Part shown: piece by piece, positions 2,963 through 28,488 of the stretch
Position numbering within the stretch: position 1 is the first letter of the stretch
Layout of the letters: every line of letters starts with the position of its first letter
Origin: a virus
Taxonomy: Duplodnaviria; Heunggongvirae; Uroviricota; Caudoviricetes
Direction: 5' to 3' (one strand)
IMG/VR virus record: IMGVR_UViG_2609460354_000008
Span: 1-28,488 of that record
Length of the DNA stretch: 28,488 bases
Notes under the pieces: generated by a model
What the model was told of the DNA's origin: nothing
Database searches by the model: none
Seen by the model: the letters and a program-made list of their open reading frames with translations, nothing else
Translations under genes and position numbers: made by a program

Positions 2963-3717
2963 TATGCGGCCCTCACGATATAGTTAAATGCAATATTACG
3001 CGGACGAAGTTCTGGTGATACCGGAGTCGAACCGCTGACATTAAACGTGTAATCAAACACGGAACCTGATCCAGATGAAGTAGATAAAGTTTCAGCATTT
3101 TTACTTTTTGCTACAGAAACACCACCTAAACCATTTGTTTGTTTAACAGCAAAAAGACCATTAAACGTTCCTGAAATAGACGGCATACCATGAGATTGCG
3201 CAGTGAGAATCCCCCTGCCACTATCAACGCCTCTTCCATCATCCCAGCCACGCATAAACTCACCACGTAAATCAGGCAATTTATTTGTCGGGTAAGCCTT
3301 TGCCAGTTCTGGGTATTCTTCAGCAGAAAAAGCCGCACCATTGCATTTCAGCCAGCCTGTTGGCGGAGTGGCTGCAGGCCACGGAACAGGCACACCAACG
3401 GGTAACGCCGAACCTTCTCCCAAACCAAGGTTTTCGAGAGCCGTTTTCACCGTGCCGTCCGATTTGATATCGCCAAACGGATTTTTGCGGCTTAACAGCA
3501 GCGCACGAAGCGCGGTAAGCAACTGGTCGTGCCGCCCTTTCTCCAGGCTGGCACCGGAGGCCTCCACAACGCTGCAAAGCTCCTCCTGCAACATGTCAAA
3601 GTAGTCATTATCCAGATCGGTGGCAGGTGTGCCGGTCTGGGGGTTACCACGGGTAAAACCGTTCTTACCCGCGCCGAACTTATCCTTCTGCGCGGTTTTC
3701 GTGTCTATACGATGCAT
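2962..3717 (-). CDS. Tail fibre protein with tail-collar domain; constant N-terminal part (about aa 1-96) outside the invertible segment, variable C-terminal part inside
   Basis: 251 aa; [20 protein letters not shown]...[14 protein letters not shown] matches the phage tail-collar domain; the crossover site lies inside the ORF. Confidence 0.8.
3414..3433. repeat. Right crossover site of the invertible segment (inverted copy of 1483-1502); plus strand reads CCAAACCAAGGTTTTCG around an AA centre, hix/gix-like
   Basis: Reverse complement GAAAACCTTGGTTTGGGAGAAG shares the 15-nt core with the left site. Confidence 0.6.
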
Positions 3718-7393: not shown

Positions 7394-8718
7394 TGCACTG
7401 GCACCTTCAGAGGGATCACCGGCACAAAGCCGGGATGCGTAATGGCATTACGCCGGATAATGTCCGCGTCACGCGCCGCGTTATCAAACCAGGTCGCCGC
7501 CAGCACCAGCGCGGGTAAAACCTCATCCGGTGTGCGCTGAATGATCCGTGCAGACTGTTCAAGGCGCGTGTTGATATCCGCATTCAGATCTGCTTTCACC
7601 CGGCGCAGCGCCAGAAACAGCGCATCACTGGTTGTACGGGACAACTCCTTATCAATTGCCGTATTCAGTGTGTCGCGAATGTCAGTCAGTTCTTCCCACG
7701 TCGGCAGGTCAACCGTGTTTTTCACCGCCGGTGCATTGTTCAGTGCCGGATGCGTGACGGAAGGCCAGCCAGTGCTCTGCGCGGGTGTTGTTGCCTGCCC
7801 CACTGCGGCATTCTGCATCACCGCGGAAGTTGTTGGCGCAGGCAATCGGGTGACGGCATACGCCGCTTCGCTGATTGCGGTCGTACGAAGGGTGCTGGCA
7901 ACCACGTTACGCTGCTGCGTCGCCGTGGCGGTGGTTTTACTGTCCGTTTTCCAGACGCCGCGCGGTTGCAGATCGCTGCCGAGGCTGACACCGGAAAGCG
8001 TTTTGATCATGGTGACCAGGTCGCTGGCGTTACCATAAAGGCGTTTCCCGGTACGCCACATTTTCTGCACCTGCTCAACGAAATTTTTGCCTGACGATGG
8101 TGGCGGCAGAAGTACCGAGATATCCCCCTGCAACAGCCTGGCAGCATCCGATACGGCAGAATCCACCACTTTCATCGCATCAGAAACATACCCAAGCATT
8201 GTGCTGGCATTACCGACGACGTCGTTCTGCACAAAATCCGCCACGCCATCGATACTGAAACCGCTGAAGCTGTCACTGATGCAGTCATCCAGTGCAGAAC
8301 AGGATGACATCAGCGTCTGCGCCGTCGCCGCACCTGATGTGGGGTAAGAGAGTTCTCCCGCTTCGACAAACTTCAGGTCAAAGCGGACAATACGCCCTTC
8401 ACTCTTCGATGTGCTGACCCGAACCTCTCCATCAACACAGACTTTCAGCTCACCGTAAGTCGGATGGACAAGCGTGCCGGGACCGGGTTTATTCAGCGCG
8501 TCAATCAGGCGATCGCGCTGGTCAAAGCAGTCATCTCCCACCACATAAGCCGTGATGGACGGGCGGAAAGTGATTTTCCCCAGGTCTTCAGTATAGGGTT
8601 TGTCGCGGTTCGGGTATTCGTGCGTTTCCACACGACGACCGGTTCCCGCACTTTCTTCTTCAACCTTAAACGGCACACCGCGAAATGACGCGTCCTGAAG
8701 TCTGTCTTTCCACGTCAT
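7390..8718 (-). CDS. DNA circularisation protein (Mu gp43/N-like); start set at Met15 (MTWKDRLQ)
   Basis: Conserved position after the tape measure gene; GGAG RBS about 6 nt upstream of the ATG at 8718. Confidence 0.65.
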   Translation of the reverse strand: MTWKDRLQDASFRGVPFKVEEESAGTGRRVETHEYPNRDKPYTEDLGKITFRPSITAYVVGDDCFDQRDRLIDALNKPGPGTLVHPTYGELKVCVDGEVRVSTSKSEGRIVRFDLKFVEAGELSYPTSGAATAQTLMSSCSALDDCISDSFSGFSIDGVADFVQNDVVGNASTMLGYVSDAMKVVDSAVSDAARLLQGDISVLLPPPSSGKNFVEQVQKMWRTGKRLYGNASDLVTMIKTLSGVSLGSDLQPRGVWKTDSKTTATATQQRNVVASTLRTTAISEAAYAVTRLPAPTTSAVMQNAAVGQATTPAQSTGWPSVTHPALNNAPAVKNTVDLPTWEELTDIRDTLNTAIDKELSRTTSDALFLALRRVKADLNADINTRLEQSARIIQRTPDEVLPALVLAATWFDNAARDADIIRRNAITHPGFVPVIPLKVPVQ

Positions 8719-8778
8719 ATAAACTCCGTACATAAAAAATCCCACCGGAGTGGGACTCATTAACAGATTAATTTTTCA

Positions 8779-26778: not shown

Positions 26779-27444
26779 TTACAGCCGTTCAGAACGTAAA
26801 TGCGTCAATACTCGACTCCACTTATCATCCTGCCACGGCCGGAATTTTACATGTGCCGTTTCTCTGGCAAGGATTTCGCGCGCCTTATGTAGTATCTGGG
26901 GATATTCTTGCTCGATGGAAGCAAAGCGACCGGCTTCGCGGTGCTCCGCAACCTGAAGAAGTAGAGTAACATTCTGGCAGGCGGTTAACATCACATCCCC
27001 TGCTCGCCATAACCAAGCAAGTGTGCAAAGTTCGTTATCAGTGAATTGTTTTATGATTGGGGATTGTTGAACTTCTCGATCGAGAATATCCAGAACCCAA
27101 CGGCGGAACTCTTTGGCTACAGGAGTGCGGGCGAACATGGCGATCAAATGGGCTCCGCGGAGAGAGAAAACGCGTACTTTCTTCTTCAAGTTTCGAGTAC
27201 TTTTCGAGGTACTCAGATCAAGTACCTCGACATCATTCTCTGAGGTACTGACTTCAAGCACTCTAGTCATACTACTGGAAAATTCGTCAGCATATTTGTT
27301 GTAAATCATCGTGACTGCGCGACTATTCGAATACTTCAGTGCTCTTGCTAGGTTGGATGAAGTTAGCCATATTCCGGCAATATTTGCCACTGGCACTAGT
27401 GCTTCACCTTGGAAGTTCAGATCTGATGTTGCTACAATACTCAT
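26779..27444 (-). CDS. Bro-N domain antirepressor-like protein (start set at Met28, AAGGAA RBS; alternative start at 27525)
   Basis: N-terminal Bro-N-like pattern (LNFQGEALVPVANIAGIW...FSLRGAHLIAMFARTPVAKEFRRWVLDILDREV); downstream of the Arc-like gene. Confidence 0.55.
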   Translation of the reverse strand: MSIVATSDLNFQGEALVPVANIAGIWLTSSNLARALKYSNSRAVTMIYNKYADEFSSSMTRVLEVSTSENDVEVLDLSTSKSTRNLKKKVRVFSLRGAHLIAMFARTPVAKEFRRWVLDILDREVQQSPIIKQFTDNELCTLAWLWRAGDVMLTACQNVTLLLQVAEHREAGRFASIEQEYPQILHKAREILARETAHVKFRPWQDDKWSRVLTHLRSERL

Positions 27445-27514
27445 GTCGATATTTCCTTCGCGGTTATTTTCGATAGAAGCCCCTAAGGTTGCCGCCAGTG
27501 GGGCTTCGCTGTTT

Positions 27515-27673
27515 CTAGCGAGCATGTATCCGTGCTCTAAATTTCAATGCCCATACAAGCGCCTGAACAATAGCTGCGTTCTCAGACATCCCTTCCTCCT
27601 GAGCAATTCGCTTGAATTCATCCTTCACTTTTTGCGGATAGCGAAGGGTAATTTTTACCTCTTTCTTTTCCAT
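27515..27673 (-). CDS. Arc-like ribbon-helix-helix repressor (52 aa)
   Basis: MEKKEVKITLRYPQKVKDEFKRIAQEEGMSENAAIVQALVWAL has the RHH beta-strand/helix pattern; GAGG RBS; divergent from the Mnt-like gene. Confidence 0.55.
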   Translation of the reverse strand: MEKKEVKITLRYPQKVKDEFKRIAQEEGMSENAAIVQALVWALKFRARIHAR

Positions 27674-27772
27674 TGACATAACCTCATGAGGCCACAATGA
27701 CACCATGAGGCCATAATGCCACCATTGAATTGATGTGGCAATATGGCACCATTCATTTTTTTGGGGGTTCCA

Positions 27773-28090
27773 ATGGCTGACAAACAAGTAAAAGACTACG
27801 ATAAGTTTAACCTCCGTTTCCCTGATGGGATGCGTGAAGCTATAGCTGAACGAGCCAAACGAAACGGGCGCTCAATGAATTCAGAAATCATTCAAATACT
27901 CCAAGATGCCATAGAAGGAAGTTCTGAACTATCTAAACGTTTAAATTTAGTTGGGTTTATTCGAGGTGACAGAGAGATACGTGACCTGGAAGATAATGCA
28001 AGCAAACTTGCGTTGTATATCGATCATAGAACACAAGAGTTTAAACAAATTTTATTGGAAGATTTAAAATTACTCCTTAATCATGATTAA
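27773..28090 (+). CDS. Mnt/Arc-family ribbon-helix-helix repressor (Mnt-like, 105 aa)
   Basis: FNLRFPDGMREAIAERAKRNGRSMNSEIIQILQDAI aligns with P22 Mnt (FNFRMP...ANGRSMNSELLQIVQDAL) and Arc; GGGGG RBS before the ATG. Confidence 0.7.
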   Translation: MADKQVKDYDKFNLRFPDGMREAIAERAKRNGRSMNSEIIQILQDAIEGSSELSKRLNLVGFIRGDREIRDLEDNASKLALYIDHRTQEFKQILLEDLKLLLNHD

Positions 28091-28134
28091 TGTTAATATT
28101 TTCTCAAAATCCAATTGATAGAGGAGTTATTTAT

Positions 28135-28488
28135 ATGCGTATTAAAATCATGCCTCTCCCAAGTACTATCCAAATGGGCCAAAAAAAACGGACAACAAGT
28201 GCAGCAGTATCCACAACGTTTTTTGGCCCAAATGGTCTTAAACCACAAGGAGATAGCCTTGAAAATACAGCAAAGAAAAACTCTTCAATTTTGCGAGAAA
28301 AAAACTACAGAAAAATTGCTGAAACACTATATAAAACTGGGGTCATAACTATGGCAACATTTGATAGAGAATGTAATTTAGGAGGTAAAGACAGAAAGTA
28401 CTTGCGACATATTTTTTCCCTACTTTTGTCAGAAAAAATCAAATCAAAACAAATCAGAATAACCCGCAAGAAAAAACAGAAGAAATAA
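28135..28488 (+). CDS. Hypothetical protein with Lys-rich basic C-terminus (117 aa), low-GC; stop is the last codon of the window
   Basis: ATG preceded by a GAGGAG RBS about 8 nt upstream; no family recognised. Confidence 0.4.
   Translation: MRIKIMPLPSTIQMGQKKRTTSAAVSTTFFGPNGLKPQGDSLENTAKKNSSILREKNYRKIAETLYKTGVITMATFDRECNLGGKDRKYLRHIFSLLLSEKIKSKQIRITRKKKQKK

Follow-up and report, generated by a model that had tools for sequence, protein, structure and literature searches.

A conserved gene for a small basic protein as an autonomous cassette in lambda-like prophages, found next to a Mnt-like repressor gene in an SfII/SfI-like phage

Described systems and the phage that carries the locus

Morons, for which gene 15 of HK97 and bor/lom of lambda serve as examples, have been defined as insertions with respect to related phage genomes that deviate in GC content, have their own promoter and their own terminator and are expressed from the repressed prophage (PMC3594210). 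In the immI region of phage P22 the gene order is mnt, orf59a, a terminator and then sieA, which has a promoter of its own and encodes a hydrophobic membrane protein. HK022 Nun is a small basic prophage exclusion protein. The gene that we describe here, and call X, lies directly behind a Mnt-like gene at the very end of the window (the whole stretch of phage DNA that was analysed, 28,488 nucleotides), and the preliminary description had put its product forward as a candidate exclusion or regulatory factor by analogy with the superinfection-exclusion functions in the immI neighbourhood of P22.

For the part of the window between positions 3489 and 28488, ~74% matched phage vB_EcoM-689R6 and ~69% the Shigella phages SfII/SfI, at 96-98% identity, and the genes for the tail sheath, tape measure, portal and terminase (window 1-21000) were among the matches. 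By these similarities the element is classed as a temperate myovirus of the SfII/SfI type whose early region and nin region are lambdoid. Extension with near-identical records gave the order Q-ylcG-rusA-ybcO-ninE-ninB (all on the minus strand), followed by ant and arc (minus) and the Mnt-like gene and X (plus). The sequence beyond position 28488, which the preliminary description had suggested consulting, could be supplied in the same way and continues with ren-P-O-cII-cro (all minus) and then cI (plus). This gene order places X in the nin region, where it converges on the rightward early operon. The features around X are collected in Table 1.

Table 1. Position of gene X, its candidate signals and the neighbouring immI-like genes in the window
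Feature	Position	Strand	Remarks
ant-like antirepressor gene	26779-27525	-	Bro-N and P22_AR_C domains; divergent from the Mnt-like gene; context, not part of the X cassette
arc-like gene	27515-27676	-	Divergent from the Mnt-like gene; context, not part of the X cassette
Mnt-like ribbon-helix-helix repressor gene	27773-28090	+	105 aa; directly upstream of X
Low-GC block	27910-28488	+	GC content of the C-terminal half of the Mnt-like gene 32%, of the spacer 23%, of X 34.5%
Weak sigma-70-like site TAAACA-17-TAAAAT	28042-28070	+	9/12 positions; inside the 3' end of the Mnt-like gene; possible private promoter of X
In-frame upstream ATG	28090-28092	+	Overlaps the Mnt-like stop codon (TAATG); would add 15 residues to give a 132-aa form
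Spacer	28091-28134	+	44 nt, 22.7% GC; between the Mnt-like stop codon and X; lacks a terminator-like hairpin
Possible extended -10 TGtTAATAT	28091-28099	+	Seen by eye
RBS GAGGAG	28121-28126	+	8 nt before the ATG of X; AGGAG invariant across all homologous loci
X, CDS of a 117-aa basic protein	28135-28488	+	ATG at 28135, TAA at 28486-28488 (last bases of the window); supported by homologues, dN/dS and PGAP

The name Mnt-like, given earlier to the gene upstream of X, proved to be justified, as its product contains a Pfam Arc domain (E 5e-20) and aligns over 73 residues with P22 Mnt at 45% identity (E 5e-13). A sar-like RNA candidate that is antisense to the 5' part of the antirepressor gene was observed at window 27409-27510 (plus strand; Rfam RF00262, 34 bits, E 1.6e-4, under the gathering score of 43), a full-length match that has a GC-rich hairpin at its end, and a promoter-like sequence TTGGAA-18-TACAAT with an upstream TG is present at 27409-27438, just before it. 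Since a sar-like RNA thus accompanies ant, arc and mnt, the module would represent a complete and true homologue of P22 immI, relocated to the nin region of a lambdoid/SfII-like phage instead of lying beside a tailspike gene as in P22. X then holds, in this E. coli lineage, the position that orf59a holds after mnt. The arc/mnt-like intergenic region (window 27678-27758) contains tandem 19-nt direct repeats (ATAACCTCATGAGGCCACA / ATGACACCATGAGGCCATA) and a second pair of repeats (ATGCCACCATTGAATT / ATGGCACCATTCATTT), which probably serve Arc and Mnt as operators. In the same region a leftward promoter-like sequence occupies 27741-27713, and no rightward promoter for the Mnt-like gene passed a simple scan.

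The Mnt-like gene appears to be of mixed descent. Its N-terminal half has a GC content of 43%, versus 32% for the C-terminal half, and the low-GC block that runs from 27910 to the end of X is exactly the part that is absent from related ant-arc-mnt modules in other E. coli genomes. In 14 E. coli genomes arc and the N-terminal half of the Mnt-like gene were found at 92.7% identity, and this similarity ends at 27909. A recombination joint is therefore apparent within the gene, with the 27910-28090 side unique to X-carrying loci; the N-terminal ribbon-helix-helix half is common to hundreds of E. coli prophages (85-93% identity), and for the C-terminal half one fragment was the sole relative among 5.8 billion proteins. 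In the modules of Stx phages no gene follows the Mnt-like one. In one of the 14 genomes, that of E. coli SCU-113 (NZ_CP051765.1, locus L025, 3275-4667), we observed a different C-terminal half of Mnt followed by an unrelated gene for a hypothetical protein of 160 aa, and past the latter a convergent GNAT acetyltransferase gene and a ren remnant. As this cargo is unrelated to X, the slot after the Mnt-like gene looks like a variable cargo slot.

Reading frame, selection and homologues of X

The open reading frame itself was found as it had been described: 117 intact codons behind a GAGGAG RBS, a C-terminus reading RITRKKKQKK and an end that coincides with the window edge. Its closeness to the Mnt-like stop codon (28088-28090) also stood, with the correction that the spacer measures 44 nt and not 45, and the low GC content reported for it was confirmed (34.5% vs 51.8% for the window; 28% at third codon positions). 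PGAP (NCBI) calls the identical 117-aa product in E. coli 2017.02.03CC (WP_021550620.1, hypothetical protein). The gene call P0002 (ENA) uses the start of the 132-aa form, the N-terminal extension of which is absent from the X homologues of other genera; the upstream ATG could allow translational coupling of X to the Mnt-like gene. In phage PhiR5_1 (PV340545.1) X is intact at 8636-8989, with an uninterrupted translation that is 98% identical to the window protein, and the deposited annotation splits it into two 'hypothetical proteins' at 8700-8849 (out of frame) and 8852-8989.

Among the 5.8 billion proteins that were searched, 12 clusters related to X were obtained, and full-length homologues (117-118 aa, 50-61% identity) were found in Hafnia paralvei, in Enterobacter and in metagenomes. 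An exhaustive HMM profile search of 1.84 billion representatives recovered the X family only, together with one low-complexity match, and the family comprises three clusters at 50% identity among these representatives. The gene is rare: it was present in 5 of 5,426 complete E. coli genomes, while 286 other E. coli genomes contained related immI-like modules without it, and in one of 50,697 phage records. No homologue was found on plasmids, no true homologue among the GTDB species-representative genomes, and nothing relevant in the literature on PhiR5_1 and WP_021550620.

Despite their limited identity of 50-61%, these full-length homologues stay open at 117-118 codons. A codon comparison of the E. 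coli, the Hafnia and two Enterobacter genes in the 117-aa frame gave dN/dS values of 0.07-0.17 and no stops; synonymous sites were saturated between genera (pS 0.69-0.75), pN was 0.16-0.25, and between the two Enterobacter genes pN was 0.07. The two other forward frames showed dN/dS values of 1.0-2.6 and 2-13 stops in each compared sequence, the window included. X is thus a real gene under purifying selection.

The preliminary description had mentioned an overlapping frame with a TTG start (28115-28348) as the less convincing candidate, and had stated that expression of this frame, or lack of conservation of the longer one in related prophages, would speak against X. The TTG frame exists, but it contains 2-5 stops in each compared sequence (the window included) at a dN/dS of 1.3-2.0, against none and 0.07-0.17 in the 117-aa frame, and it is therefore not conserved; X itself is conserved in related prophages. 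One database protein (P0012) shifts into the alternative frame past residue 28, which might be taken to mean that the TTG frame is the real feature and that the 117-codon ORF is not expressed; P0012 is, however, a frameshifted copy of X. A non-coding function for the region is opposed by the lack of any Rfam match that overlaps X. On the codon comparison both readings are effectively refuted, and we give them next to no chance.

Genomic contexts and expression signals

Another important finding was that X occurs in at least three genomic positions. Its place in E. coli is behind the Mnt-like gene within the nin region, and each of the 11 E. coli-type loci that were examined (L001, i.e. PhiR5_1, L002 and nine IMG/VR records) has the arrangement ant-arc-mnt-X. 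In four different Hafnia prophages it stands alone between P or DnaB plus one small variable gene on one side and ninB (DUF1367) on the other, and it is oriented against the replication genes as well as against ninB. The Enterobacter homologues and the more divergent metagenomic ones are usually solitary too, placed between a divergent xis and the end of the leftward early operon, whose last genes converge with X; in one Enterobacter prophage (L007) no int or xis was called beside it, and one variant lies near dinI-umuDC. The placement is thus repeatedly antisense to early operons. No Mnt, Arc or Ant genes were present within the fetched flanks of the Hafnia, Enterobacter and metagenomic loci, so that adjacency to Mnt characterises one E. 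coli lineage but not the X family. A conserved partner gene was not found in any of these contexts, the genes directly downstream being unrelated to each other. The neighbours of X in other loci and the 160-aa gene of SCU-113 had no Pfam or PADLOC assignment, and the location therefore gives no functional clue. X is an autonomous cassette that lacks a conserved partner gene, and its distribution indicates that it moves horizontally among lambda-like prophages as a stand-alone accessory gene.

In five E. coli chromosomes (e.g. E. coli 2017.02.03CC, L002, 8990-10775) X is followed by a ren pseudogene, a fragment of a helix-turn-helix gene, intD and a tRNA-Arg gene. Judging from this arrangement, the immI-plus-X block of these genomes survives in a truncated intD prophage that has lost its replication and immunity genes.

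We also found a sigma-70-like promoter element, (A/G/T)TGAAA-17-TATT(A/C)T, that ends 23-24 nt before the ATG of X in three divergent loci of the Hafnia and Enterobacter type. Inspection by eye showed that two metagenomic variants keep TATTAT at this position and that a third has TATCAT, and ~55 nt upstream of X were homologous among the Enterobacter-type loci (z 3-14). Given this conserved upstream element, the cassette would consist of promoter, RBS and ORF. The spacer of the promoter in Enterobacter-type cassettes contains AT-rich palindromes, within the ~45 nt upstream of each ATG (L028 2863, L029 553, L009 6001, L032 358); between TTGTTAACAA in L028 and TTATTAATAA in L029 both arms have changed with the palindrome kept, imperfect versions are present in L009, L007 and L032, and Hafnia has none. 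A role of these palindromes as operators was set aside, as their centres are out of register between the loci.

In the window no convincing promoter of X was found, only the weak candidates of Table 1, and these have to be read against the 2.9 sites expected by chance where the scan of the region returned 5. Similarity between the window and the other cassettes starts only at the RBS, and the sequence upstream of it is not significantly like their promoters. One offset match to Hafnia was considered as a remnant of the cassette promoter in E. coli and rejected (2 of 500 shuffles scored as well, in one of six comparisons). Because similarity begins at the RBS and no terminator intervenes, co-transcription of X with the Mnt-like gene is the simplest reading for this lineage. 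No terminator-like hairpin was found after X in L002, L003, L007 and L009, and the 3' flank did not fold better than shuffled sequence (z -1.1).

Compared with the morons of PMC3594210, X shows most of the defining features. It is an insertion that only some of the related prophages carry, its GC content departs widely from that of its surroundings (34.5% vs 51.8%), a putative promoter of its own precedes it in most lineages (with weak candidates only in the window), and it is a single gene, oriented opposite to the lytic operons, that shifts between positions and genera. It differs in that no terminator-like element was found 3' of the gene in any locus scanned, so that one classical moron feature is missing, and in that the lineage of the window has no recognisable private promoter, X having been captured behind the Mnt-like gene. 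Among characterised moron proteins the product has no relative.

The E. coli arrangement on its own would suggest another explanation, namely that X is a functional part of the immI-like module, either as a SieA-like exclusion factor or as a co-factor of the Mnt-like protein. In 11 of 11 E. coli-type loci X comes directly after the Mnt-like gene, in the same orientation and without an intervening terminator; a single low-GC block, missing from other E. coli ant-arc-mnt modules, takes in X together with the C-terminal half of the Mnt-like gene; and P22 has the small orf59a, co-transcribed after mnt, ahead of sieA. However, X has no similarity to SieA, orf59a, SieB or gp17 of P22 (for SieA, BLASTP gave no alignment at E up to 10) and contains no membrane segment, so that the soluble and basic X contrasts with the hydrophobic SieA; other E. 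coli immI-like modules have a different gene or none after the Mnt-like gene; and the Hafnia, Enterobacter and metagenomic homologues occur without Mnt, Arc or Ant in the fetched flanks, i.e. X is found without immI in other genera. We therefore regard a role within the immI-like module as improbable, and the P22 immI neighbourhood, from which the proposed function had been argued, no longer provides a rationale for it: the similarity to its exclusion proteins and the membrane segment are lacking and the link to Mnt is lineage-specific.

The same gene pair could also be read as a type II toxin-antitoxin-like system, with the Mnt-like protein as upstream antitoxin and X as downstream toxin. Such systems are called to mind by the order of the two genes, by the 44 nt between them and by the extra C-terminal domain of the ribbon-helix-helix protein, and the C-terminal half of the Mnt-like gene travels with X. 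This reading fails because X is conserved and intact in the Hafnia, Enterobacter and metagenomic loci, where no antitoxin-like gene precedes it. Moreover, X matched no toxin family in Pfam, NCBIfam or PADLOC, and a true Mnt homologue that is divergent from arc-ant and accompanied by a sar-like RNA points to an immunity module. A toxin-antitoxin pair is in our view very unlikely.

The protein and its possible function

X is strongly basic, with a pI of 10.6-10.9 and a net charge of +18 to +21, and hydrophilic (GRAVY -0.59 to -0.87). As the hydropathy maximum over 19 residues is just 0.19-0.72, there is no membrane segment, and the protein is probably soluble and cytoplasmic. AlphaFold2, run with the family alignment, predicted residues 1-40 to be disordered, followed by helices at 42-67, 73-79 and 85-116 and no strands, and a model of residues 40-117 contained the same three helices. 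The mean pLDDT of the full-length model was 71, with 80-92 in the C-terminal half; the models are of medium confidence (pTM 0.46-0.53), being built on a shallow alignment of about three effective clusters.

Among eight sequences of the family 47 positions were invariant. These include F30-G31-P32, P37 and G39-D40 in the disordered part and nearly all of L53-E79, and in the stretch 85-101 (KDR.YLRHIFSLLL.EK) only residues 88 and 99 vary, which implies that seemingly surface-exposed residues are fixed too. R87, Y89, R91, H92 and C80 belong to the invariant residues. The three-helix core of ~42-101 is nearly invariant as a whole, and the Lys-rich tail is variable. Within the predicted disordered segment, residues 28-41 (window 28216-28257) follow the motif (L/F)FGP..(L/V/I)(K/R)P.GD(S/T). 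To our knowledge this motif matches no known docking motif; it might mediate the binding of a host factor.

In the preliminary description X could not be assigned to a family, and homology and structure searches, which it had recommended, produced no significant match either. There was no match in Pfam or NCBIfam, no family at E up to 1 among the PADLOC-DB 2.0 defence models, and in PHROGs just two matches of unknown function (E 0.07-0.1). Searches with all eight family members at E up to 10 returned noise only (SeqA_C 0.067, Fe_dep_repress 0.14). In three Foldseek searches with two models of X the best E-values were 2.4-2.6 in the PDB and 0.13 in BFVD, with none below 0.1, and a sequence-profile search of the PDB gave E 0.12 or worse (a DtxR-like repressor and trypanosomatid eS17). 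Many weak matches to eukaryotic eL19/eS17 were discarded as an effect of the long basic helices.

Two non-significant leads pointed to a winged helix, namely PDB 4o5v, a DtxR-like repressor (E 0.12, X residues 52-111), and PF01325 (Fe_dep_repress, E 0.14, in one of the eight family members). Over residues 52-111 X agrees weakly with the DNA-binding N-terminal domain of 4o5v in the spacing of three helices and in the hydrophobic pattern, and its strong basicity is a further point of resemblance, but it differs from the DtxR type in having, in the model, a long C-terminal helix in place of a recognition helix and beta-wing, and there was no fold match. X most likely binds a polyanion, and its charge, its invariant helix and its faint likeness to a winged helix would make nucleic acid the most probable target. 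An acidic protein or a different polyanion would be compatible with the high positive charge as well.

The main rival to a nucleic-acid-binding X is a protein-protein inhibitor (involved in host takeover, anti-defence or the triggering of defence) that acts via the N-terminal peptide and the core, the basic tail being incidental. The conserved F30 G31 P32 ... P37. G39 D40 in predicted disorder is what one would see for a docking peptide, the core is invariant across genera, and no DNA-binding fold was recognised. Nevertheless, a protein of 117 residues that binds proteins only would not usually have a net charge near +20, no known defence family was matched, and the orientation against the lytic operons agrees more readily with expression in the lysogen than with an early takeover function. 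We consider this inhibitor unlikely.

Like HK022 Nun, X is small, basic and encoded by lambdoid prophages, and it is plausibly made in the lysogen. A Nun-like exclusion factor that terminates the transcription of a superinfecting phage by binding its nascent RNA or RNA polymerase would agree with the size and basicity of X, with its basic stretch at residues 15-20 and with its probable expression in the lysogen. Homology to Nun was not detectable, however (hhalign of X against HK022 Nun gave a probability of 0.08% over 11 aligned columns), N-peptide families were not matched, an arginine-rich boxB-binding motif is lacking, and X occupies a position other than that of N/Nun in all loci examined. 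For these reasons we think that X is hardly likely to be a Nun analogue.

The explanation that we prefer, and to which we would give slightly less than an even chance, is that X is a single-gene moron: a self-contained mobile gene, expressed in the lysogen, for a soluble cytoplasmic protein that binds nucleic acid and is not a component of the Mnt/Arc/Ant system. Expression in the lysogen, nucleic-acid binding and the biological role are what we infer for X. In the lysogen of Hafnia and Enterobacter prophages the gene would be transcribed from its own sigma-70 promoter; in the E. coli lineage studied here, where no such promoter is recognisable and no terminator intervenes, transcription of the Mnt-like gene would read through into X. 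Specific binding to a nucleic acid, be it DNA or RNA, would be the task of the invariant helical core, to which the Lys-rich tail would contribute unspecific affinity, and by this binding X would be a trans-acting regulator or exclusion factor. In the lytic cycle, antiterminated transcripts from the convergent early operon would cross the gene in antisense direction and so silence it. That X is an exclusion or regulatory factor, as had been proposed, is a reasonable guess from its moron-like anatomy and not from the immI analogy.

A more far-reaching idea, which we regard as rather unlikely, is that X founds an uncharacterised family of prophage-encoded, lysogen-expressed nucleic-acid binders that protect the lysogen from other phages or reprogram host transcription by a mechanism unlike that of known exclusion and defence systems. 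One possibility would then be that helix 85-101 binds incoming phage DNA or RNA and that the N-terminal peptide recruits a host factor.

The gene call and the reading frame of X are settled, and so is the restriction of the P22-type immunity link to one lineage; the annotation of PhiR5_1, which splits X into two ORFs, can be corrected. X is still a hypothetical protein, and the findings do not force a new concept, as orphan prophage accessory genes are an ordinary kind. Strong purifying selection, presence in at least three enterobacterial genera, an antisense placement and the lack of detectable relatives or a fold together make X a tractable candidate for a phage-challenge or regulator screen. 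If the preferred explanation is right, X would be one more single-gene cassette in the accessory pool of prophages that alters the behaviour of the lysogen.
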